This document shows positions 5,291 to 53,739 of a stretch of 64,000 nucleotides of DNA, piece by piece. Numbering within the stretch: the first letter of the stretch is position 1; each line of letters starts with the position of its first letter. A model generated the notes under the pieces. The model had not been told where the DNA came from. It worked only from the letters and a program-made list of their open reading frames with translations, and made no database searches. Source of the stretch: a virus; the UHGV virus genome UHGV-0229283; one strand, given 5' to 3'. A program made the translations under genes and the position numbers.

Positions 5291-5497
5291 TTAGTAGCGA
5301 GACCACTTCACGCGACCACCGTCGCAGACCAGTTTGTTCTCAACGACAATGCCATCCGCACTGTTTGCCAAGCGTTGTTCACCGTTAGGCTTACAATTAT
5401 GAGTGACGGTATCTGCTGTGTCAACAACAAAAAGCGCCACTACCACAATTATTCCAACGATTACTAAAGGTTTCACCCAAGGCATAAATCCACGCAT
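5291..5497 (-). CDS. small N-terminally anchored membrane protein (68 aa)
   Basis: Single N-terminal TM (PLVIVGIIVVVALFVV) followed by a short periplasmic tail; lies just upstream of the lipoprotein gene. Confidence 0.4.
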   Translation of the reverse strand: MRGFMPWVKPLVIVGIIVVVALFVVDTADTVTHNCKPNGEQRLANSADGIVVENKLVCDGGRVKWSRY

Positions 5498-5799
5498 TAT
5501 ACACCACCATTCTGTTCTAGCAAGAAAGCATATAGCTCAGTAATGATACCATCATCCAAGAAAGTCTCATATTCCCCAGTCGCACCACTTTCCTCCCACT
5601 CATCTAAACCAGTACGAGCGCCTCTAAGTGCGGCAGTCCATGCTTGAGGATACTGACCTTCATGACAGTTTTTCTGAATTTCTTTTGCGTATTCAAATAC
5701 TTTAACAGCTGGAAGCTCTTCAGTGAATTCATTAAACAAGGTGAATTCTTCACTTTTGAAAATGGTATCGTCTTTTTGAAAACCAAGGGTACGTTTCAT
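5497..5799 (-). CDS. hypothetical protein (100 aa)
   Basis: Co-oriented ORF. Confidence 0.45.
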   Translation of the reverse strand: MKRTLGFQKDDTIFKSEEFTLFNEFTEELPAVKVFEYAKEIQKNCHEGQYPQAWTAALRGARTGLDEWEESGATGEYETFLDDGIITELYAFLLEQNGGV

Positions 5800-9039: not shown

Positions 9040-9267
9040 TTAAATTTCTTGCAAATATTCAATCATGGTCTCTAAGCTTTTATTCTTATAGCGTCTAGAA
9101 GCCAATGACCAGCCGGGGTACTCATTGTCGGTATCGGTAGTGTACACCATCCACTCCCCTGCAACTTTCCTGAAAAAGCTGACATAGTACGCCCAATTAC
9201 CGCCCGGAGTAGGATGTCCTGGATACATAAAATAATGGGTTGCTTCTTTAGGTTTGTTCGGAAACAT
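9040..9267 (-). CDS. hypothetical protein (75 aa)
   Basis: Co-oriented ORF downstream of a terminator. Confidence 0.4.
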   Translation of the reverse strand: MFPNKPKEATHYFMYPGHPTPGGNWAYYVSFFRKVAGEWMVYTTDTDNEYPGWSLASRRYKNKSLETMIEYLQEI

Positions 9268-9280
9268 GATTTCTCCTATG

Positions 9281-9305
9281 AAAAAAAAAGGGCCGAAGCC
9301 CCTAT
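9281..9305 (-). terminator. rho-independent terminator after the DNA polymerase 3' exon
   Basis: The minus strand reads AGGGGCTTCGGCCC (UUCG tetraloop hairpin) followed by T9. Confidence 0.55.
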
Positions 9306-9307
9306 CG

Positions 9308-10003
9308 TTAATGGCAATCGCTCCAATTACGACCAGTCAGGTATGCCCCTGTGATATGTACAGGACTGCCCATGATACGAGCGGCCTTCTCTACACATCT
9401 TACGACCATTTCACCTACAGGGCAATACTGGATGTGAATTTTACCATCCTCTCCAAAAATACCCTCGTAGACTGTATTGCCTTCCGCATCCTTGACTTTA
9501 TCACCGTTGTCATCTTTGACGGCCTTTCTCCATTCATGTCCGTCAAATACCCGGCCTTTTGCTTCCCATTCTTTAACGAAAGCTGTTGCCTCTTCCAGGG
9601 TGTCAAACTCCCACTTCTTCAAGTATTTCTTAGGAACCTGGAGCTGGTATTCATCATGGTAGTAAATCAGGCGACGAACGTCATCATCATACCAGCCACG
9701 TTTGATTAGTTCCCAATGAAGAAGGATACCCACCAGATCGAATAGAGATGCACCACCGTTTTGCTGGAAAGCATTCAGAAGAGAGTGCTTAGAACGGGTC
9801 CAAATCTTACGACCATCGAGACCAGGGATATAACGTTTACCCGTTGCTTCCCAGAAGTTTTCAAGCCATTCCTTACGACCTTTCAAACCAAAGTTACTAT
9901 CCCAGAAAGCATCGATTACCGCCTGTGCCTTGTCAAGGGAAATGTGAAGCATTGCTGCAATCTTAGCTGCCTGAGCACCATACATGATCCTAATGTTCGA
10001 CAT
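9308..10003 (-). CDS. DNA polymerase (family A), C-terminal fragment/exon 2, carrying motif C
   Basis: IMYGAQAAKIAAMLHIS matches the Pol I motif B tail (YGMSAFGLARQL). YYHDEYQLQV matches motif C (VHDE). Confidence 0.75.
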   Translation of the reverse strand: MSNIRIMYGAQAAKIAAMLHISLDKAQAVIDAFWDSNFGLKGRKEWLENFWEATGKRYIPGLDGRKIWTRSKHSLLNAFQQNGGASLFDLVGILLHWELIKRGWYDDDVRRLIYYHDEYQLQVPKKYLKKWEFDTLEEATAFVKEWEAKGRVFDGHEWRKAVKDDNGDKVKDAEGNTVYEGIFGEDGKIHIQYCPVGEMVVRCVEKAARIMGSPVHITGAYLTGRNWSDCH

Positions 10004-10121
10004 GGGACGCTACCACCATGCCCGTTCTCTTATGAACTGCTGCATGTTTCCATGCAGAGCAGACTATATCTTCACCCACACTTGGGGTGTCCACCGCTTC
10101 GGGCCGCTTGGCCCTACTCCG

Positions 10122-10523
10122 TTACCGGATAGTCGTTGGGATTTTACCTCTTGCCAAATACCACTCTTCACCACTACAGTAAAGATTGTTGCAAACAGCA
10201 TGTTCTACATTAGATGCACGGCATGATAACTCTATATTTTCCCAGCAATTATTCAATGTGTTTGCATCTAGGTGGTTGACCTCTTCCTCTTCAAGAAGGT
10301 CTCTACCGATCTTTGCCGCACAAATCAACCTGTGCAACAAATAGTGTTTGCCATTTTTCAAACAGATACGCTGATAAAATTTCTTTCCCTTACCTTTGTG
10401 TAGATAGGGCTTCAACTTTCTTAGTTTTCCACGATTGCTGGAGTATATATTACCTTCGTGGTCACAAAAGTATCCGTTTGATATTGGTATTTTAGCCAAG
10501 GTACTTATCTGCTGATTGTCCAT
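10122..10523 (-). CDS. HNH homing endonuclease (HNH_3 type) inside the DNA polymerase gene
   Basis: NGYFCDHEGNIYSS...KLKP......Y..I.L...GK..LHRLI is the I-HmuI-like HNH_3 signature. The ORF lies between the two polymerase fragments. Confidence 0.7.
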   Translation of the reverse strand: MDNQQISTLAKIPISNGYFCDHEGNIYSSNRGKLRKLKPYLHKGKGKKFYQRICLKNGKHYLLHRLICAAKIGRDLLEEEEVNHLDANTLNNCWENIELSCRASNVEHAVCNNLYCSGEEWYLARGKIPTTIR

Positions 10524-41310: not shown

Positions 41311-41548
41311 TTTTACATGATATTTTAAAATTCGAAATGGTTTTCAAAATCGTTTTTGAAACGGATTTCATCTTCCCTGCAAATTTTTAAATAAAGAGTT
41401 TTGGGAGTAGGTTATCTCAAACCTTTGTGGAAGCTATGTCGAAAAATGATGCACAAGTGTATGATTGCTATAGGTATCTTGGCATCAAGATTGGACATTT
41501 ATCTCAAATAGGCGAAAAAGATATCTCAAATTTTCAGGTAGAAAACTC

Positions 41549-41760
41549 TGGGTTCTCGATCGACTTTTCGTTTTCAAAAACGTATTTGCTCTCACTATCA
41601 AAAAATTTTTCTCTATATCAACCGGGTTCTCGATCGGTTTTTCAAAATCGAGATCGTAAATGTTTTTTCTCTAGAAAAAATTTTTCGGCCCGGTTCTCGA
41701 TCGAGATCTCAATTTCCAGATCGTATTTGTTTTCTTACGCGAAAAAATTTTTTAGGGGTA
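41549..41760. repeat. three tandem direct repeats of about 70 bp (GGTTCTCGATCG...CGTAWWTG...AAAAAATTTTT)
   Basis: Units begin at 41549, 41622 and 41688. Each starts with GGTTCTCGATCG and ends with an A6T5 tract. They sit in an AT-rich, palindrome-rich intergenic zone. Confidence 0.6.
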
Positions 41761-42131
41761 TCGCTCAGTATATCACATGAAAATCAGAAGTCAATATTTA
41801 AATTTTTTGTTGAATGAGAAGCATTCTTATTTAGTTATTTGAATGATAATCATTCTCATTTGCTGAATGACAGGCACCCCCGGTGTTTTGTACTCCGGTT
41901 TCAATGTTCCCGCTATGTGTATAATATAGGATACACGGCCCCAGGTTGCAAGCGTCTTTACAATTCTTTACAAATAGACTTTAGGCGAGCTACCGGCGAT
42001 CCACCTTCCAACCAGGTCTCCGCGCCTGGTATGTTAGCCCCGCCTTTCCGCCGTGGGGTGGCGTCTCTTCTCCTGTCTGATAAATATAACCCATGTCGGG
42101 GCCGTTTGCAAGCCCCGCGATAAAATATTTT

Positions 42132-42317
42132 TTACTCCCAGGAGTCCGCGAGCACTTCCCCATTTTCCGCTACAATTCTCACCCTGGTAAATCCTGCATT
42201 ATACATTTTCAACGCGAAGGGTAAAGGCACGATCCTAACCTGGGGCGCTGCGCTTTCCGTCTCCCAGGTGGAAAGGGTGACCATTGTCTCACTCGTTGTT
42301 ACTTTTGCGTTTTCCAT
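42132..42317 (-). CDS. small hypothetical protein (61 aa), divergently transcribed from the small-gene cluster
   Basis: It carries the same AAAGGTAAACGAAATG initiation region as the plus-strand cluster, but on the minus strand. Confidence 0.45.
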   Translation of the reverse strand: MENAKVTTSETMVTLSTWETESAAPQVRIVPLPFALKMYNAGFTRVRIVAENGEVLADSWE

Positions 42318-42420
42318 TTCGTTTACCTTTATTTGTGGGCGTCCTTATATAGTACACTAACCAGGCCTGGGCGCAAGCCCACACGAACAAAAATATTTTT
42401 AATTTATTTTCATCCAGGGG

Positions 42421-42449
42421 ATTGACGGCAATTAGTAAAGCGCTTACTA
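42421..42449 (+). promoter_or_regulatory. sigma70-like promoter (TTGACG, 17 bp, TACTAT) for the first cluster gene
   Basis: Hexamers and spacing read directly from the sequence. Confidence 0.5.
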
Positions 42450-42497
42450 TCCATCTCATCAGGTCCCCCGTCGCCCACACTTAAAAGGTAAAATAGA

Positions 42498-45855: not shown

Positions 45856-45860
45856 CCAGT

Positions 45861-45886
45861 CCGGGGAATTATCCCCGGTTTTTTTT
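45861..45886 (+). terminator. rho-independent terminator (CCGGGGAATTATCCCCGG plus T8)
   Basis: A perfect hairpin followed by eight T residues. Confidence 0.65.
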
Positions 45887-46189
45887 ATGCAAAAAAGTGA
45901 ATTTAGCGAGATCTCAGCGTAGCAATGCACTTACCAGGGTTACAGATTGAAGCGCTTAGAATCGATTTGAGGGCGTTTTAGATGGTATCCGATAACCGCG
46001 CCCCGCTCAAAACGTCGCAAATTTAGTTACCGGTTGAAACTAATTGCATAACAGCGATTTTCTATGCACATCACTGCATATGAGAACAGTTCTCAACAAT
46101 TCTTAAAAATATTTGTTGCATCCTGGCGGCGTTATGCTATCCTTTAATCAGTGGCGGAATTCACCGCCACACTGAAAAAGGTAAACACT

Positions 46190-46366
46190 ATGGAAAAGCA
46201 AAACATGTATAAAACGGCCTATAGTTCTGAATTTTGTTGTTATGTTGGGATTAATCGCGCTTGGAAAGATTCAAATGGTAAATGGATTTTTGAGTGTTCA
46301 AATGTGGCAAAGGGCCTAGATAATTTCCTTTTTCGTGAGTCAGAACTAGAAAAATTTTGTCTTTAA
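46190..46366 (+). CDS. small hypothetical protein (58 aa; start MEKQNMYK)
   Basis: AAAAGGTAAACACTATG initiation region. The longer track ORF starts at GTG inside a hairpin. Confidence 0.45.
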   Translation: MEKQNMYKTAYSSEFCCYVGINRAWKDSNGKWIFECSNVAKGLDNFLFRESELEKFCL

Positions 46367-46369
46367 TTG

Positions 46370-46399
46370 TTGACACTGGTTAATGTGTGGGGTTATACT
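46370..46399 (+). promoter_or_regulatory. promoter/operator module copy 1 (TTGACACTGGTTAATGTGTGGGGTTATACT...CACATTGACAAGTG)
   Basis: TTGACA, then 17 bp, then TTATAC. The -10 is flanked by the inverted repeat AATGTGTGG / CCTACACATT. Nearly identical to the module at 47870. Confidence 0.55.
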
Positions 46400-46444
46400 T
46401 CCTACACATTGACAAGTGAAACAAATAACCAAAAGGTAAACAAC

Positions 46445-46729
46445 ATGCAAAACGTAAAATCTGAAATCGCCGCTCTTGAATCAAAATTCCTGGGCAAAAT
46501 GGTGTATCATAACTATGGTCAAATCGCTTTTGGCGTGGTAACCGGAATCGATGATCGCGATCCCAATAAATTACGTTTACGCGTGAAGTTTACCCGCAAC
46601 AATACTCCGGCGCATATCAAAAAATATGACAACCGCGCGGATCGTGTTCGTTGCTTACTCCCTCAATCTGTTACCGTGTCCCGTGTTCAATATGGGATCT
46701 ATAATCAGACAAACCAGATCAACAAATAA
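46445..46729 (+). CDS. hypothetical protein (94 aa; start MQNVKSE)
   Basis: AAAAGGTAAACAACATG initiation region. Confidence 0.5.
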   Translation: MQNVKSEIAALESKFLGKMVYHNYGQIAFGVVTGIDDRDPNKLRLRVKFTRNNTPAHIKKYDNRADRVRCLLPQSVTVSRVQYGIYNQTNQINK

Positions 46730-46767
46730 TCAATAGCGGGGCCTTGCGCCCCATTAAGGCGGCTACC

Positions 46768-46986
46768 ATGTTTGGATTTATTATATTGGCTTGTCATATT
46801 TCTGTTAGTTCGATGGCATTACAATGTGATTGGAATGTTAAAAAAACATTCCCCACGGAACAGGCTTGCAACGTGTACGAAAACGAATACACGTTAGGCA
46901 AAGGCGAGCAGATCGGGATCTGCGATGAGTTAGACCCCGGCGTTAAAGAAGGCGATAAGCGCCCTATTCTCACCCTCAAAAAGTAA
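46768..46986 (+). CDS. small secreted Cys-containing protein (72 aa)
   Basis: ATG after TAAGGCGG. Signal peptide MFGFIILACHISVSSMA. Four Cys in the mature part. Confidence 0.45.
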   Translation: MFGFIILACHISVSSMALQCDWNVKKTFPTEQACNVYENEYTLGKGEQIGICDELDPGVKEGDKRPILTLKK

Positions 46987-46996
46987 GGTAACGATC

Positions 46997-47188
46997 ATGT
47001 TTGAAGTATTCGCGGGTATGTGCTTTTATGGTGCGCTGGCTTTAAAACAGTGTGATGATTATGTAGTAGAAAGCTATGATGATCAATTGACTTGCGAGAT
47101 CGTCGCCGTTGACTATCAGCGCCAGGGGCGCTGGATTAATCCGGCCTGCATACCATCGCCGGAAGTCGAACCGATGCCGGAAAGCTAA
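46997..47188 (+). CDS. small secreted Cys-containing protein (63 aa)
   Basis: Hydrophobic N-terminus MFEVFAGMCFYGALA. Cys residues. Confidence 0.45.
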   Translation: MFEVFAGMCFYGALALKQCDDYVVESYDDQLTCEIVAVDYQRQGRWINPACIPSPEVEPMPES

Positions 47189-47271
47189 AATAATCATTGA
47201 TCCCCCGGCCCGGTTAGGTTATATTACTTGGACCGGGCAAGATTGGCCCACTAACAAAAAGGTAAAATAGT

Positions 47272-47595
47272 ATGGAAAAGGCAAACAAATTTTTCTTTCT
47301 GGAAAATGTTAATGACAATGTTAATTGTGACTTTAATCGCCAGGGTGAAAAAACCATGCTAGTATTTTGCCATGAGAATGACAGCGAACAAACGGACCGT
47401 TTAACCGTCCTGATCCGTACTGAAAAATCTATTCAATCCCATAGCGGAAAACTTGAAAACCGCCACTTTATCGCCTACACGCTTGAAAGAAGCGGAGTAA
47501 CAATAAAACAGGCTGACAGCCTGCCTATAACTACCCCGGATCTGGTCTGGATGTTTACAACTGCTATTGTTAACGATGTTTTCCGTTCTAACTGA
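47272..47595 (+). CDS. hypothetical protein (107 aa)
   Basis: AAAAAGGTAAAATAGTATG initiation region. The preceding hairpin has TTATATTAC in its loop. Confidence 0.5.
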   Translation: MEKANKFFFLENVNDNVNCDFNRQGEKTMLVFCHENDSEQTDRLTVLIRTEKSIQSHSGKLENRHFIAYTLERSGVTIKQADSLPITTPDLVWMFTTAIVNDVFRSN

Positions 47596-47612
47596 TTGAG
47601 AAAATTAATCTG

Positions 47613-47651
47613 AAAAGTCGCTTGCAAACGTGAGCGACTTTTATTATATTT
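47613..47651 (+). terminator. rho-independent terminator
   Basis: AAAAGTCGCTTGCAAACGTGAGCGACTTTTATTATATTT. Confidence 0.6.
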
Positions 47652-47700
47652 AATGCACAGGGCGGCAATGGTGCGACGGCCCAAAATAAAGGTAAACGAA

Positions 47701-47865
47701 ATGAAACTTTCCCAGCAATTTGCTCAAGAATGCCGCGAAGAAGCGAAGTATTATTTTGATCGCGCCTTGCAAGCGAAAGCAGAAGGCCTGAATTATTCCC
47801 GCCGTGTTTGCTTACAGGTCGCTTTATTGAATCGCAAAAACGCCCGTAAATGGGCCGCCGAATAA
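47701..47865 (+). CDS. small hypothetical protein (54 aa; start MKLSQQ)
   Basis: AAAGGTAAACGAAATG initiation region. Confidence 0.45.
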   Translation: MKLSQQFAQECREEAKYYFDRALQAKAEGLNYSRRVCLQVALLNRKNARKWAAE

Positions 47866-47869
47866 TTTG

Positions 47870-47899
47870 TTGACACTGGTTAATGTGTGGGATAAGATA
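47870..47899 (+). promoter_or_regulatory. promoter/operator module copy 2 (TTGACACTGGTTAATGTGTGGGATAAGAT...CACATTGTCAAGTG)
   Basis: The first 25 nt are identical to the module at 46370, and the same inverted repeat flanks the -10. Confidence 0.55.
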
Positions 47900-47951
47900 C
47901 CCGCACATTGTCAAGTGAAACAAAAAAACCACACAAAACGAGGTAAACAGA

Positions 47952-48722
47952 ATGACCACTAAAATCACCGTTACTTATTACATCGACTCCGGCAAGCTGA
48001 ATGCAATGTATACATTGCGCCGCCGTAATTTTGGCGGTGGCGTTTTTGTAGATTCTTACATTTGCAATCTTTCAACCGATCCCCAAAAAGCAGAAAATAA
48101 AGCAAAGGAATATTTTGATCGAGTAACCGCGCGGATCGCCAATACAGAAAACTTTGAGCAAGTTTTTGCAGGCTATGCGGATTTTGAGCTGGGGCAACGT
48201 CGCGGTAAATTGTCGATCGTCGATACGGCCCGGATCGAAGAAATCGAAGCGGGGCGCTTTCCGTTTGGCAAGCATTGCGGTAAAACGTTTGCCGATGTTA
48301 AAGAATCATATGTTTTATTTTTTGCTGATATGGCAAACAAGCCAGACAACGGCCCGGTAATGGAAGCATTAAGCGCGGCTTGTTTGGGCTATGCTCTTGA
48401 TCATGGGTACATTGCAGCCCGTGACCAAAAACGCGCCGAGCGTAAGGCCGAGGATTTAAAAAGCAACTGGATCGGCAACATTGGCGATCGCCTGGTTTTT
48501 GAGGGTGAGATCGTTTTTTCTTATCTAAAAATTGATGAGTGGAGTTTATCATCTTACTATATTATAAAAATTCGCCAGGGTGACGATCTGGTTACCTACA
48601 TCGGATCAAAAGAGTTAGGCCCGGTTGGCGCGGTTATTAAGTTTAAAGCTACCGTCAAAAAACATGATACATATCAAGATGTTAAAACAACCGTTGTAAA
48701 CCGTCCCGCCATTATGGCATAA
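47952..48722 (+). CDS. hypothetical protein (256 aa)
   Basis: AACGAGGTAAACAGAATG initiation region. Confidence 0.55.
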   Translation: MTTKITVTYYIDSGKLNAMYTLRRRNFGGGVFVDSYICNLSTDPQKAENKAKEYFDRVTARIANTENFEQVFAGYADFELGQRRGKLSIVDTARIEEIEAGRFPFGKHCGKTFADVKESYVLFFADMANKPDNGPVMEALSAACLGYALDHGYIAARDQKRAERKAEDLKSNWIGNIGDRLVFEGEIVFSYLKIDEWSLSSYYIIKIRQGDDLVTYIGSKELGPVGAVIKFKATVKKHDTYQDVKTTVVNRPAIMA

Positions 48723-48770
48723 TGTACACCAGGCCCCGGATCGCCGGGGCAACTTTTAGAGGTAAACAAA

Positions 48771-49061
48771 ATGAAAAATGTTAACGCGCTGTTAGAAAAG
48801 GCTGAAAAATTAGTCTGGGCGGAAATAGAAAAGAAAGTAACAAAAATTCTACTGAGTGAACGCAACGCAGCGCGGGGCTTTATTTGTTGTATGGGCGGTT
48901 ATTTCTGGATCGACAGCAACGGCGATGCAATAGACGATCGCGCCTGGATGAATCCTGTTTTCAATATCTTTGATAAATACGATGATGCTTTCAAGCTTAC
49001 GGGGATCGGTTGGCGCTGGGATCTGGTTAATGGCGAGGTTGTAAAAACAACCGATTGGTAA
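48771..49061 (+). CDS. hypothetical protein (96 aa)
   Basis: AGAGGTAAACAAAATG initiation region, after hairpin GCCCCGGATCGCCGGGGC. Confidence 0.5.
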   Translation: MKNVNALLEKAEKLVWAEIEKKVTKILLSERNAARGFICCMGGYFWIDSNGDAIDDRAWMNPVFNIFDKYDDAFKLTGIGWRWDLVNGEVVKTTDW

Positions 49062-49217
49062 ATGCAAATGATACGTTTTCTCAATATGCGATCTGGTAAA
49101 ATTTATCGCTGGATTGAAAACCGTGTTTTGGTTGAAACGACAAAAGGCTGGCGACGTGTAGATCACTTGCGCCCCGCCGATCTGGCTTGCTTTCCTTTCA
49201 TGGGGATTAAAAAATGA
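49062..49217 (+). CDS. small hypothetical protein (51 aa, not in the ORF track)
   Basis: TAAATG overlap with the upstream stop. Its stop overlaps the next ATG. Confidence 0.3.
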   Translation: MQMIRFLNMRSGKIYRWIENRVLVETTKGWRRVDHLRPADLACFPFMGIKK

Positions 49218-49681
49218 TTAGTGTACGAATGTTTTATTACGATGAATTATCAGAACAGGCAAAAGCCGCCGCCCGCGCTAACGTTGTGATCCCCGAGGTG
49301 GAAGCACTGATTCGTAATGTTGGCAACGCTCGCCAGGCCTGGAAGGAAAACATTCACCGGGCAATTAATGACCCTTATCACGTCCGCCGGATCTACAATG
49401 GACAAATGGCGCTTTACAAAATCCGGCACCAGGGCGAGGCTTATTTGATACCCTACATCCGGCAAAACTGCACAATTTATCTGGCCGATGGATCATATGT
49501 TTACTATGATTGCAACAAAAAACGGATCGCTATTGTTAACAGTGGTTATCATGGATTATTACCCGACGATCTCCAGGTGGCGGCGCGTGATGAATATGTA
49601 AGAGTAAACGATCGAGGCCCGGCATACTTTAGAAAATTATATTCCGACATTGCAAAGGCGAAGAGATCCGGCCCGGCATGA
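49214..49681 (+). CDS. hypothetical protein (155 aa)
   Basis: Co-oriented and coupled ORF. Confidence 0.5.
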   Translation: MISVRMFYYDELSEQAKAAARANVVIPEVEALIRNVGNARQAWKENIHRAINDPYHVRRIYNGQMALYKIRHQGEAYLIPYIRQNCTIYLADGSYVYYDCNKKRIAIVNSGYHGLLPDDLQVAARDEYVRVNDRGPAYFRKLYSDIAKAKRSGPA

Positions 49682-50048
49682 TAGGAAAATCTTTACAATT
49701 CCAGGGCTTGTTTTCGGTCCTGGTTTTTGTTATTCTGTTTTTGAAGCGGCAACGATGGACACCGGAGGAAAGTCACCGGAGGTGCCCGCCATTCTGGTAA
49801 TGAGAATTACTCTCAACAACGCCTAAAATCTTATGCAAAATAGTGAATATGGCGAGATCTCCGATAAAATGGACTAGGGTACAGCCTGGACGAAAAACCG
49901 CTTAAAACTCGTTACAGGGCGTTTAAAGGCCATATAAAAACAACTTGACACGGGAAAACGGCTAAAAAGTAATTTCACCATGAAATCAATTGCATAGCGA
50001 TGCATAAAGATGCAAAAAGTGAATAATGTAAAGATACGTAAAGAGCTA

Positions 50049-50077
50049 TTGACAGCGATCCCCGCTTATATTATTAT
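50049..50077 (+). promoter_or_regulatory. sigma70-like promoter (TTGACA, 17 bp, TATTAT)
   Basis: Read directly from the sequence. Precedes the gene at 50127. Confidence 0.5.
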
Positions 50078-50126
50078 TTATCTCGTAGGGCAAACAAACG
50101 AAAACAACTTAACGAGGTAAACGAAA

Positions 50127-50486
50127 ATGACTATCATCAATCTGAATTCTACTGTTAAAGGTAAAGATTTTGGCGGCGTAGTAGATCATGATCCGATGTG
50201 GTCGCTTTCAGTTTTCAAAGGCGATTTAATCGACGTCGTTACCCTGGATGGCCCGAGCGACGATTACAAATGTGAAATTCATCTCACTAACTGGTACACT
50301 AACAAAACTTATGCTCTTGATCGCGTGATTATCGGTAGAATTGAATCACTGACAGACGAAGAGACCGGGCAAGATTTTGATTATTATATCAATAGCTCTG
50401 ATCGCGCTGATCGTCTGCTGCAAAAGATTAAAGAAAAAGGCGTTATTGATTTAGCTCTTTGGGTGGACGTTACAGAAAGCAACTAA
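50127..50486 (+). CDS. hypothetical protein (119 aa)
   Basis: AACGAGGTAAACGAAAATG initiation region. Confidence 0.5.
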   Translation: MTIINLNSTVKGKDFGGVVDHDPMWSLSVFKGDLIDVVTLDGPSDDYKCEIHLTNWYTNKTYALDRVIIGRIESLTDEETGQDFDYYINSSDRADRLLQKIKEKGVIDLALWVDVTESN

Positions 50487-50561
50487 GTTAACAGATTAAA
50501 AGGCGTTTAGATGAGCGCCTTTTGATAAGTTATCACCAACAATCAAAAGAGGTAAAAAACA

Positions 50562-50891
50562 ATGACTAAATCAGAATTCTTTAAAATGCTGGATAATCAT
50601 CTAGAATCACACAACTACACTTTCGATCATTTTGGAAATCGAATCAAGCGAGAGGATCGCCAGTATACAGCAAACGAGATCGAGGCCTTCACACATAGCG
50701 AACCAGAAGAGAAGATCGTGAAACTTAAAGCGGCGGATTCAAATTATCCTTGGATTTTTCATTCTTCCGGTTGGTGCCTTGCGGATTGTTGGTATATCAC
50801 CGCTATCTCACATAGAACAAAAGCGGCGGCAGAAAAGCAACATAAGATTTTTACCCGCTGGATCGCTGAGTATAAAGAGCTTAACAAATAA
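50562..50891 (+). CDS. hypothetical protein (109 aa)
   Basis: AAAGAGGTAAAAAACAATG initiation region, after a weak terminator hairpin at 50501..50524. Confidence 0.5.
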   Translation: MTKSEFFKMLDNHLESHNYTFDHFGNRIKREDRQYTANEIEAFTHSEPEEKIVKLKAADSNYPWIFHSSGWCLADCWYITAISHRTKAAAEKQHKIFTRWIAEYKELNK

Positions 50892-50939
50892 TCAAACCGG
50901 GGCGCTAGCCGCCCCGCTATCCTTTGAGGTAAAGCAATT

Positions 50940-51170
50940 ATGATTAATATTAGTGTTGACAAGTTAGCCGAAATCATCCAGAAGGCAGGAGATGAGAAAT
51001 ACGGCGTAAATGATTTTTATTTCATCGGGCAGTATGAGGACGGTCGCTATTATGGCGTGTTGTCTAACAAGGTGAAAAGCCGTAGCAGCGCCGCACAATT
51101 GCGCCGCCCGGAGTTTTTAGAACAAAAGGGCCTTAAAGTAATAAAAGTAATGAAACGCAAAAAAGGTTGA
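50940..51170 (+). CDS. hypothetical protein (76 aa)
   Basis: TGAGGTAAAGCAATTATG initiation region, after hairpin GGGGCGCTAGCCGCCCC. Confidence 0.45.
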   Translation: MINISVDKLAEIIQKAGDEKYGVNDFYFIGQYEDGRYYGVLSNKVKSRSSAAQLRRPEFLEQKGLKVIKVMKRKKG

Positions 51171-51382
51171 TGATTATGAAAACTGTAAAAGCAAAAGATT
51201 TAAAAGGCGGAATGATCATCGAATTACCGGACATTGCACCAGGCTTTAAACCTGGTTTAGTGACTATCACACAAATAGAAATCGAAGCGCCCCACATTGT
51301 GGAAGTATCTTTCTATTACAAAAAGCGCTATATGGCCGACCTTTATCACCCTGAGGCGGAATTTAAACTAATCAGTGAATGA
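51167..51382 (+). CDS. hypothetical protein (71 aa)
   Basis: ATGA overlap with the upstream stop. Confidence 0.45.
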   Translation: MMIMKTVKAKDLKGGMIIELPDIAPGFKPGLVTITQIEIEAPHIVEVSFYYKKRYMADLYHPEAEFKLISE

Positions 51383-51485
51383 GGCTGTAAAGAAAAGGCA
51401 AACCGCTTGCCTGGCCAGATGTTTTCGACTATTATTTATTTCAGGGCGGGAAGATAACCAACCCGCAAAACCGAAGGTAAATAAA

Positions 51486-51656
51486 ATGTCAAATATCCGC
51501 TACAATATCAAAAGCACTTCAAAAACCGGTTATGTGTCTTATGTTCGCCAGGGGTCTACAATGGCTTGGACCTTTGAAGAATGTATGAAAATTGTTACTA
51601 CGCTTTCAGGTGATGATCGCTATATGGGCGTTTTATTTGAGATTGAATTAGCTTAA
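51486..51656 (+). CDS. small hypothetical protein (56 aa; start MSNIRYNIKS)
   Basis: ACCGAAGGTAAATAAAATG initiation region. Confidence 0.4.
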   Translation: MSNIRYNIKSTSKTGYVSYVRQGSTMAWTFEECMKIVTTLSGDDRYMGVLFEIELA

Positions 51657-51661
51657 ACATC

Positions 51662-51688
51662 GGGGCGCTATTGCAGCGCCCTTTTTCG
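51662..51688 (+). terminator. rho-independent terminator (GGGCGCTATTGCAGCGCCC plus T5)
   Basis: Hairpin followed by a T run. Confidence 0.55.
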
Positions 51689-51730
51689 TGTGTTATTCTT
51701 TTACCTCCCTCATTAAACGAGTAACACCAA

Positions 51731-51994
51731 ATGACAAACATGATTTACACTGTAAGCAAAACAAGCCTTTTACGCGCTACCCTGCTGGCTTGCCTTATTG
51801 CTTTAGTGTCTAATACGTGTTTTAACTGGCTGGCTTGCCTGGTAACGACGGAAACAATGGCGCAAGGGTTTAACACCATGATCGACGTTTTACAATTGAC
51901 GTTTTACACTCTGATTAAACTTAATCGCTTTAATCGTTTAGACCGTTATGATCTCCCTTTCTTGATCGCTGGCCTGCTGGCTATCGCGCTGTAA
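51731..51994 (+). CDS. small membrane protein (87 aa, 2-3 TM)
   Basis: LLRATLLACLIALVSNTCF and LPFLIAGLLAIAL are hydrophobic segments. Confidence 0.45.
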   Translation: MTNMIYTVSKTSLLRATLLACLIALVSNTCFNWLACLVTTETMAQGFNTMIDVLQLTFYTLIKLNRFNRLDRYDLPFLIAGLLAIAL

Positions 51995-52019
51995 GGCTCC
52001 ACTACTCCCCAAAAATAAT

Positions 52020-52048
52020 GCCGGGCAACTCCCGGCTTTTGTGTTTTT
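52020..52048 (+). terminator. rho-independent terminator ending the small-gene cluster
   Basis: GCCGGGCAACTCCCGGC followed by TTTTGTGTTTTT. Confidence 0.5.
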
Positions 52049-52407
52049 ATATGTTAGGTTTTATCAATCAATAATCAAAAAGTGATAGGTGACTAAAACC
52101 TGCATAATCGAGATCTCCAGGCGGTAACCCACTAGCCAGGGTAAGAGATAAAGCCTCTCAGAATGGCGCATATTGCGCTTAAAAGGGTATGGCCCTACCT
52201 AACAACCCCAACAATTAATAACGCATGTTATTAACTGAATAAAACATGCATTTTTAAGCATTATGTATGCATAGTGTGAGAATCACTCTCAAATGATAAC
52301 TTTTATCATCTAACCTATTGTGTGAACTGGTTTTATTGAGCATAAAAATAAAATCTTGTCAAATAAAAATCGTTCGCGTAATCGTGGGGAGTGGCGCGAG
52401 CGTAGCG

Positions 52408-52613
52408 AGCGACACAATAACACTAGGGTAACTCAAATGCGAACAAATCGCATTCTCGTTCGCGTTATCGTGGCTCGTAGACGCTACGATCAAGGACGAA
52501 ATTATTACAGTGTATTATCATTACATCCGTAATGATTAGCAATGGAACTTTATCACATCGCCACGATAACACCGATCAACTATCGTTGATCGCCCTAGTG
52601 TTATTGTGTCGCT
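52408..52613. repeat. 21 bp perfect inverted repeat pair (AGCGACACAATAACACTAGGG / CCCTAGTGTTATTGTGTCGCT) flanking a 164 bp palindrome-rich core
   Basis: The left arm is 52408..52428 and the right arm is 52593..52613. The core contains internal palindromes (GATCAACTATCGTTGATC, CATTACATCCGTAATG, GCGAACAAATCGCATTCTCGTTCGC). Direct and inverted GCGTWATCGTGG copies lie around it. Confidence 0.6.
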
Positions 52614-53739
52614 GGTGATGGTAACACCCCGTTATTATTATGTGATTAAATGAAATTTAATGGTTGACAAATAGCAATAAATCACTTGCCAATGTGGGCC
52701 TATGGCCTATGGAAAGGCCTGTTTTTGAGCATGGAAGAAGTGTAAACTGTCAAGTGTTTTTATTATCGAAAATTCCTATCAATGCCTTGCGTGGCAATAA
52801 AGAAAATAGTTACTTATTGTAACTATTTCAATGCTTTAGCATTGCCGGGTATCCGGTCCGTAACGGGCTTATGTGAGAATAGTTATCATTGGGGAAATGC
52901 TCAAAGTATAGCTGTGTGTTAAACACGATTCTCTCTCCTTGTCAAGCTTTTATTTATAAATTTACAAAATATTTATATTTGCGGAATGATTCTCATTTCG
53001 AAATTGAATTCGAAATCGAAATAATAATGATTCTCATTCGTCATCTCATTCACAAAACAACCCTAAAACATGAATAATCACACATGAAACTATCACCACA
53101 GTAACAGTCACACCATGTAATGACCTGAAGCGGCTGGCCTATGCGTCACACTGGTAACATTGGGGCATTATTAGCTTGCTATGTGTTGTTGGTCAGTGCG
53201 TATAACGTGTTTTATGTTAAATGGTGTAATTCATATAAATATAAGCTTGTCAATAGCAAATCGTGCTCTAAGCTGGCAAACCATATGCTTGCTATATGTC
53301 ACATTTGATTATTATTAGTTTCGGCAAGTAACTATCATGCCTGAAGAGGCCCCGAGGAACCGGGAACCGGATCGACCTTGCCCATGATATTTTGTAAAGA
53401 TCCGTAAAAATATTTGACGCCCGGAGCTGTCCGTCTAGCACCGCAGATGGTGAGAACAGGATATTTTTCGGCAAGTGATATTTTCGGCAGGGGGCCTGTT
53501 TTGATTTCCCCACGGGGGAAGGGGTGGTTATACGGGGAAAACAGGGGCCTGTTTACGGTATCGACATATCGGGGAGTCCCTTCAGATTGTGTGTTAATGA
53601 AATGAGTACGTAGTACAATGAGAATCATTCTCATTTACAGACAACCGGGCAGGTCCGGTGATTGTTTCGTGCAGCCTCAGCACCTGTTGCTGTGTGCAGG
53701 ATAACAGGGTTGCCTATTCAGGTCAACCCCTTCGTGCGG

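Follow-up and report, generated by a model that had tools for sequence, protein, structure and literature searches.

The stx1 promoter, carried by a temperate phage, is regulated by Fur, and cyanophage genomes possess sites for host nutrient regulators (Pho boxes and NtcA sites) at the promoters of phage metabolic genes. In temperate lambdoid coliphages, a fur box is located upstream of sitABCD (PMC6969025). The Fur box as a site type and Fur boxes controlling cargo genes on temperate phages are already known. Bacterial Fur boxes, including those of E. coli (fepA-fes, fepB-entC and fepD-entS), X. campestris and A. baumannii, have a 9-1-9 arrangement with a 7-1-7 core and occur in pairs or clusters, overlapping matches being phased by 6 bp. 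Crystal structures of Fur revealed contacts to the G of TGA (Arg57), to thymines (Tyr56) and to an AT-rich narrow minor groove (PMC4506495). The present analysis concerned a family of 19-bp palindromes in a 64,000-nt stretch of the virus genome UHGV-0229283, the whole of which is referred to here as the window. Judged from their sequence, these palindromes are probably Fur boxes read by the iron-loaded Fur dimer of the host, so that their regulator need not be regarded as unknown. A phage that keeps Fur boxes in the noncoding islands of its last ~12 kb and in its short terminal repeat is favoured, with modest confidence, as the best overall explanation of these sequences.

The window resembled the cargo operators of temperate phages in having host Fur sites on phage DNA, but those cases comprise a single operator at the promoter of an iron or toxin gene, whereas in the window, which is from a lytic phage, the sites number about ten and lie where there are no genes. 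By analogy with the cyanophage Pho and NtcA sites, the phage may read the nutrient status of its host through a host transcription factor, although no evident regulated gene was observed in the window. With the bacterial Fur boxes, the window sites shared the 9-1-9 and 7-1-7 geometry, the 6-bp phasing, the grouping in pairs or clusters, identity to one published consensus, and scores at the top of the range of true sites; unlike them, they lay in a virulent phage, with no iron gene beside them and no recognisable strong promoter overlapped.

About ten copies of the 9-1-9 palindrome were found in the window, all within four noncoding islands (nt 41311–42497, 45856–46190, 49682–50126 and 51995–53739) that together make up 5.8% of its length. 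The consensus of nine phage sites was AATGAGAATCATTCTCATT. With up to one mismatch allowed, GAGAANNNTTCTC gave 9 matches versus 2.76 expected, and the 15-mer TGAGAATNATTCTCA with up to three mismatches gave 13 versus 5.0 expected; none of 100 shuffles reached 9 or 13, respectively. Window matches with up to two mismatches were all located in noncoding islands. A first-pass annotation had proposed that seven or more copies of a palindrome, confined to noncoding DNA between nt 46095 and 53640, were candidate operators for an unidentified dimeric regulator. The number and the confinement were borne out, and copies did occur in that interval, but the list had omitted those at 52874 and 52292 and also the strong pair at 41815 and 41844, which lies outside it. 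The six strings quoted there were all present, 2–20 nt away from the positions assigned to them: TGAGAACAGTTCTCAAC at 46081–46097 (given as 46100), TGAGAATTACTCTCAAC at 49801–49817 (49805), TGAGAATCACTCTCAAA at 52277–52293 (52275), AATGATTCTCATT at 52985–52997 (52988), ATGATTCTCATT at 53027–53038 (53028), and the perfect AATGAGAATCATTCTCATT at 53617–53635 (53619). The formula GAGAAT-N3-ATTCTC, however, was wrong, the half-sites being arranged as 7-1-7, that is, GAGAAT-N1-ATTCTC or GAGAA-N3-TTCTC. Operator-type sites for a dimeric DNA-binding protein describe the family well; the protein can very probably be given a name since the motif is a canonical Fur box, and control of promoters by these sites is conjectural.

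The perfect palindrome at 53617–53635 was letter-for-letter identical to the Fur-box consensus of Xanthomonas campestris, AATGAgAATcATTctCATT (Blanvillain et al. 2007, PMC1790865), which was reached via a full-text search for the string. Fur weight matrices were built from published sites only, 21 from A. baumannii (PMC3055841) and 10 from Xanthomonas, without the phage sites. Under each of these matrices, the top four positions of the 64 kb were 41842, 53617, 53020 and 41813; under the combined matrix these four scored 19–27.5 bits, versus 13.6–26.5 bits for the training sites and a maximum of 16.6 bits over 40 dinucleotide shuffles. In the reverse test, a matrix of the nine phage sites was run over 603–633 kb of E. 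coli K-12, and the best five matches fell in fepB|entC, fepA|fes and fepD|entS, intergenic regions that have been footprinted with Fur (Chen et al. 2007). The copy at 53617 and the consensus of the nine phage sites were 19-bp inverted repeats with a 7-1-7 core matching AATGATAATNATTATCATT or GATAATGATAATCATTATC, and the bases contacted by Fur (TGA...TCA and AAT-N-ATT) were present in both halves of the strong sites. Other site types were less suitable. The RcsAB box (TaAGaatatTCctA) has similar half-sites but a spacing of 7-0-7 instead of 7-1-7, while the ARG box and LacI-type palindromes did not fit in spacing and centre on inspection. A scan of 41–54.5 kb against Rfam at permissive thresholds yielded just two matches, both at chance level, and no tRNAs; the motif thus falls outside known RNA families.

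The family was uneven, with four textbook boxes (41813, 41842, 53020 and 53617), two intermediate ones of ~16 bits (49799 and 52872) and about four weak variants of 9–13 bits (46079, 52275, 52292 and 52979); three of the six leading examples of the first-pass annotation, at 46079, 49799 and 52275, belonged to the weak or intermediate class. In the 1.2-kb island (nt 41311–42497), AATGAGAAGCATTCTTATT at 41813–41831 (19.0 bits with the independent Fur matrix, identical in the relative KNP2) was paired, at a distance of 29 bp, with AATGATAATCATTCTCATT to its right at 41842–41860; the latter had the highest score in the window (27.5 bits) and an overlapping match 6 bp leftward at 41836. The weak variant TATGAGAACAGTTCTCAAC at 46079–46097, at the 3′ end of intergenic module M1, scored 12.5 bits, which is in the shuffle range; its 15-bp core was perfectly palindromic and was kept in Proteus phage Mydo and KNP2. 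The intermediate box AATGAGAATTACTCTCAAC at 49799–49817 (16.1 bits) lay on the 5′ side of module M2, and two neighbouring weak boxes, TGTGAGAATCACTCTCAAA and AATGATAACTTTTATCATC, occupied 52275–52310 at the 3′ end of module M3 (10.8 and 12.7 bits). The box TGTGAGAATAGTTATCATT at 52872–52890 (16.3 bits) ended ~30–31 nt to the left of the boundary of the terminal repeat. Within the repeat, the half-site-rich box TTGCGGAATGATTCTCATT at 52979–52997 (9.0 bits) and the Fur box AATAATAATGATTCTCATT at 53020–53038 (25.4 bits) were 58 and 99 bp inside the left genome end, respectively. The perfect 19-bp palindrome AATGAGAATCATTCTCATT at 53617–53635 (27.4 bits) was 182 bp to the right of the repeat. A further Fur-matrix match of 14 bits, AACGAAAATGACTATCATC at 50120–50138, overlapped the start codon of the gene at 50127 and was kept in Mydo; it was the sole match touching a gene start and is probably due to chance.

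By megablast, the window region was assigned to the genus Mydovirus (Vequintavirinae, rV5-like myoviruses), with ~95% identity to Proteus phage Mydo and Klebsiella phages KpS8 and BIS47. The window is from a virulent Klebsiella/Proteus phage. Small plus-strand genes follow one another from 42.5 to 52.0 kb, and minus-strand genes begin at 53.74 kb. From the list of open reading frames (ORFs) and the terminators, a 1.7-kb noncoding island was delimited between these convergent small-gene blocks (nt 51995–53739), containing module M3, a large hairpin, the terminal repeat and six boxes; the layout is the same in Mydo, PVP-SE1 and rV5, and in the rV5 paper the corresponding block is labelled merely 'non-coding'. 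By homology to phage DP, whose record annotates a repeat_region at positions 1–514 and 145135–145648, a 514-bp direct terminal repeat representing the physical genome ends was mapped to nt 52922–53435. Since this repeat lies inside the window, the window sequence continues across the point at which the two genome ends meet; the gene blocks flanking the repeat are oriented toward these ends. A 514-bp direct terminal repeat has been confirmed in KPP-1 by read coverage and PhageTerm (PMC9862379). A small ORF in the repeat (nt 53141–53308) was rejected as a real gene, as its length differs in phage DP and no coding evidence was found for it.

The sites persisted through three genera with GAGA/GATA swaps. 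In KNP2 (146 kb), matches with up to two mismatches were all located in one 10.6-kb zone, equivalent to the window islands and beside the 514-bp terminal repeat, whereas in the 100 kb outside this zone the matches with three mismatches numbered 3 versus 3.2 and 3 versus 3.0 expected; the similar density in coding DNA that would have spoken against the operators proposed in the first-pass annotation was thus not seen. PVP-SE1 and FENT2, of the genus Seunavirus, had seven and six matches, respectively, in the homologous noncoding block, versus ~0.25 expected. Swaps of G and T were observed at orthologous places, window TGAGAATCACTCTCA corresponding to PVP-SE1 TGATAATAACTCTCA and window TTTTATCATC to PVP-SE1 TTTTCTCATC; at the place of 52275–52310, PVP-SE1 possessed TGATAATAACTCTCA and TTGATAACTTTTCTCATC, with G and T swapped in both boxes. 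The box at 53020 differed in sequence in FENT2 but was still Fur-like (AATGCAAATGATTATCATT, 21.5 bits), and that at 52979 was unchanged in four close relatives and had one base different each in PVP-SE1 and FENT2. A PVP-SE1 box of 16.7 bits kept the spacing of the 52872 box to the boundary of the terminal repeat. Between the window and rV5 (genus Vequintavirus), the sole blastn match of the noncoding block was the 19-nt box TGTGAGAATAGTTATCATT, identical in 19 of 19 positions. In three Vequintavirinae contigs (L027, L100 and L106), a perfect palindrome was found at the orthologue of 41842, while the flanks were just ~70% identical.

The boxes at 41842, 53617 and 49799 were embedded in a longer conserved unit of ~60 nt, consisting of ttg, the box and t.c.gaat..c.ggca...cggtg.ttgt.tc, at nt 41839–41900 and 53614–53675 on the plus strand and, as an inverted copy, at 49755–49820 on the minus strand. 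The unit was also retained in L027, L100, L106 and PVP-SE1, and for its second half, the function of a weak terminator or of an additional binding site is conceivable. At the left end of the terminal repeat, the whole stretch was strongly conserved.

Several other repeats and structures accompany the boxes. The intergenic module of ~250 bp was present in three copies (nt 45880–46130, 49830–50080 and 52060–52300; mean column identity 66%), each behind a terminator and containing TTATGCAAAAnAGTGAAT and the palindrome CGAGATCTC; the latter occurred four times in the window versus 0.44 expected, the fourth copy being at 41702. In PVP-SE1, this module had a box on either side. Three ~70-bp direct repeats (CCGGGTTCTCGATCG...AAAAAATTTTT) occupied nt 41548–41752 of the 1.2-kb island, in the part of the region with the highest AT content (GC 0.32), and the strongest Fur-box pair follows directly to their right; the repeats look like an origin or an array of the stop-signal type. 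A large hairpin at nt 52405–52616 was closed by a perfect 21-bp inverted repeat whose arms are separated by 164 nt; an RNA fold of -108.5 kcal/mol (z-score -8.9) was calculated for it, and direct repeats TCGTTCGCGTWATCGTGG were found within it. Both arms change in PVP-SE1, which indicates that the stem is maintained, and the hairpin could represent either a structured RNA or a cruciform in the DNA. In its loop (nt 52436–52454), PVP-SE1 and FENT2 had a good Fur box (AATGATAATACTTATCATT, 20 bits in PVP-SE1), the halves were split in Mydo by an insertion of ~53 nt, and the window had a symmetrically altered palindrome, AATGCGAACAAATCGCATT. In rV5 (L011), about ten tightly spaced copies of ACTGTTTAC or ACTGTTCAC at positions 5480–5630 of the noncoding block resemble origin iterons; no counterpart was seen in the window.

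The motif was not restricted to this subfamily. The exact 19-mer was found in at least 120 viral contigs, compared with 0 and 4 for two control palindromes of equal composition but scrambled order, an enrichment of at least 30-fold. Among these listed viral matches, to which the following figures refer, 3 were from Vequintavirinae and 10 were T5-like, and 72 of the 120 IMG/VR loci listed (L012–L131) had two or more strong Fur matches. The 19-mers were outside ORFs in 66% of cases, in long gaps (median 311 nt versus 90 nt), with 18 convergent versus 10 divergent flanks, and in about one quarter of the contigs covered over their whole length they lay within 300 bp of a contig end. In ten contigs sampled outside the Vequintavirinae and T5-like groups, the neighbouring ORFs were ordinary phage genes with no iron genes among them. 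The exact 19-mer was also found in at least 120 bacterial contigs from many phyla. Of ten genes sampled directly downstream of the bacterial copies, three encoded TonB-dependent receptors, and one gene each encoded an FTR1 iron permease, an iron-only hydrogenase and a solute-binding protein belonging to a type that frequently serves iron(III) import. Operators of a phage-encoded repressor would be expected to be lineage-specific, and the 19-mer, with these viral and bacterial matches, was not. Its enrichment in contigs of unrelated phages is better accounted for by a factor that many hosts share than by a protein of one phage lineage. As for a Fur encoded by the phage itself, 31 of 50,697 phage records matched E. 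coli Fur by tblastn and no homologue was detected in those from Vequintavirinae; the query had been validated by a 99.3% match to a Salmonella record. On the strength of the motif and its distribution, host Fur quite likely binds the window sites.

The T5-like matches included one phage in which the 19-mer lay inside the terminal repeat. In T5 itself (L136, AY543070.1), six Fur-matrix matches of 13–27.6 bits, including AATGAGAATCATTATCATT, were found at nt 9552–9715, where five copies of TTTTTAAATGAGAATCATT make up the boxes. This array falls within the annotated injection stop signal (nt 9140–10149) and surrounds the shear point at 9618, and the 12–62 kb region had just two weak matches. Fur is unmentioned in Davison's analysis of this T5 region, and no paper linking T5 and Fur was found in a literature search of limited coverage. 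The T5 stop signal and the terminal island of the window are alike in being long, noncoding and repeat-rich, with both direct and inverted repeats in T5, in being flanked by convergent genes at the inner boundary of the terminal DNA, and in possessing arrays of AATGAGAATCATT boxes; both 41311–42497 and 51995–53739 are large, repeat-rich noncoding regions at the inner edge of terminal early DNA, as in T5. On the other hand, the 10-kb terminal repeats, paired DnaA boxes and A1 and A2 genes of T5 were not found in the window: the islands had no paired DnaA boxes and one loose DnaA box match (41916), tblastn with A1 and A2 (E up to 1) matched neither the window nor KNP2, and homologues of eight T5 terminal-repeat proteins (dmp, A1, A2 and five others) were absent from both. 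Two-step DNA entry is a trait of T5 and is not known for Vequintavirinae. Moreover, no inner Fur cluster was detected in rV5 at positions 84–100 kb or within 20 kb inward of the noncoding region, which makes a parallel with T5 based on sites lying '8% from the end' weak.

With regard to function, the boxes were positioned after terminators at operon boundaries or between convergent units. Promoter-like sequences overlapped the repeat boxes 52979 and 53020 (plus strand, 52961–52990; minus strand, 53049–53021), and a better minus-strand match at 41794–41767 was 19 nt from the 41.8-kb box pair. When iron is sufficient, Fe2+-Fur would sit on the strong pairs 41813/41842 and 52979/53020 and on the single boxes 52872 and 53617, and could spread from occupied boxes to nearby weak sites, as on bacterial operators. 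The resulting Fur-DNA complexes would act as iron-dependent operators or roadblocks, silencing the weak sigma-70-like promoters that overlap the terminal-repeat boxes and restricting transcription that runs on from one early operon to the next or into the terminal region, where the genes converge; under iron starvation, this control would be loosened. Transcriptional control as the main consequence of Fur binding is proposed tentatively, at clearly less than even probability, the remainder being split between a Fur sink and an end-related role. Two strong early promoters were identical over 25 nt (TTGTTGACACTGGTTAATGTGTGGG, nt 46367–46391 and 47867–47891) and had similar leaders behind them, which indicates duplication of a putative promoter cassette.

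Several observations weigh against Fur-dependent control of phage genes from these sites, or against parts of the assignment. None of the strong early promoters (46370, 47870 and 50049) carries a box, no iron-related gene adjoins the boxes, and the largest box cluster is flanked by convergent units, a position that offers few targets for regulation. The promoter-like matches overlapping the boxes score only 9/12, and such matches are barely enriched in the region (29 versus 20 expected). The boxes at 46079, 52275, 52292 and 52979, with 9–13 bits, are no better than the best shuffle, and those at 49799 and 52872, with ~16 bits, come close to 16.6, the highest score of any shuffle. DP, KNP2 and Mydo lack the perfect copy at 53617, and PVP-SE1 has an interrupted version of it; its absence from the first three indicates that sites also turn over. 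Finally, since the ~60-nt unit and the conserved end region surround the boxes, their conservation cannot be credited to Fur alone.

Some of the same observations suit a Fur sink, in which host Fur is bound by the boxes without any phage promoter being controlled, about ten sites per replicating copy soaking up the protein. Iron uptake, Fe-S assembly and the alternative ribonucleotide reductase of the host, all repressed by Fur, would then be turned on and the iron-dependent reductases of the phage fed. This is rather unlikely, but the idea is attractive because relatives encode iron-dependent ribonucleotide reductases (NrdA/B and NrdD/G). The sites are away from strong promoters, some of them between convergent units, and close relatives gain and lose them; the copies in other viral contigs, mostly outside ORFs in long gaps with an excess of convergent flanks and ordinary phage genes rather than iron genes beside them, are also in agreement with it. 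Plasmid-borne Fur boxes can titrate Fur, as in the Fur titration assay (PMC2189734), and the many Fur boxes of the window would likewise be carried by replicating DNA and should draw Fur off chromosomal operators; that assay, however, is a laboratory tool based on plasmids, and no natural phage equivalent turned up in the literature searched. A sink would not require fixed places across genera, yet these were observed, and its efficacy would hinge on Fur abundance and phage copy number. T5 has the same arrays, and its gene A1 is annotated as involved in host DNA degradation, so that activation of host genes would be of little gain to it.

It is less probable still that the likeness to Fur boxes is a convergence and that a phage-encoded dimeric regulator or a host protein other than Fur binds the palindromes. 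The weak copies share ACTCTCA or GTTCTCA half-sites, atypical of Fur, and a TCAAC flank, the conserved ~60-nt unit could contain a second recognition element, a helix-turn-helix protein is encoded in the equivalent early block of Mydo, and the palindrome at 52436 in the window has been altered symmetrically away from the Fur consensus while still being palindromic. Nevertheless, the Fur-box match is exact to the letter and extends to the flanks, the motif recovers E. coli Fur operators, and it is enriched in unrelated phages and bacteria; it is common to T5 and the window, yet the eight T5 terminal-repeat proteins have no homologues in the window or KNP2, and the main early promoters, which operators of a phage repressor would be expected to overlap, are free of sites. 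An end-related DNA function by analogy with T5, in which the boxes, with or without Fur, would be signals for packaging, end protection, replication start or pausing of DNA entry, is marginally less probable again. In its favour, 6 of the ~10 boxes are within 650 bp of the terminal-repeat boundaries, the spacing of the 52872 box to the left cut site (~30 nt) is identical in PVP-SE1, six boxes surround the 9618 shear point in the T5 stop signal, and the inner 41.8-kb pair lies behind AT-rich 70-bp direct repeats, 11.6 kb from the right end. Against it, the sites at M1, M2 and 41.8 kb are distant from where the genome is cut, an inner cluster is missing from the 20 kb next to the rV5 noncoding region on its inward side, tblastn gave no A1 or A2 homologues and the islands contain a single, loosely matching DnaA box.

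Host Fur binding, the reading preferred here, would be of consequence beyond the window. For conserved Fur-box arrays in the gene-free terminal DNA of virulent phages no description was found, and nothing relevant on Fur boxes in Vequintavirinae or as phage decoys appeared in the literature searched, the coverage of which was incomplete, so that an earlier report is possible. By analogy with T5, host Fur-box arrays might be a widespread feature of virulent phages, their end-proximal Fur-DNA complexes being mechanical or architectural rather than a means of gene control; these would form the core of the stop signal in T5-like phages, and the pair 11.6 kb from the right end in rV5-like phages, together with the cluster around the terminal repeat, would have a comparable, iron-linked part in the pausing of DNA entry or the handling of the ends. 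This extension is regarded as improbable. The enrichment of the box by at least 30-fold in viral contigs without iron genes nevertheless suggests a general phenomenon, and the box array in the stop signal is a candidate for the halt in T5 DNA entry, a question open for more than 50 years. The boxes likewise provide a candidate explanation for the 1.7–2.6-kb 'non-coding' block left unexplained in papers on rV5-like phages. If host Fur binds these sites, a strictly lytic phage employed in therapy work on Klebsiella, Salmonella and E. coli would be wired to the iron state of its host and, as iron is limited in infected tissue, the efficiency of infection could depend on that state.

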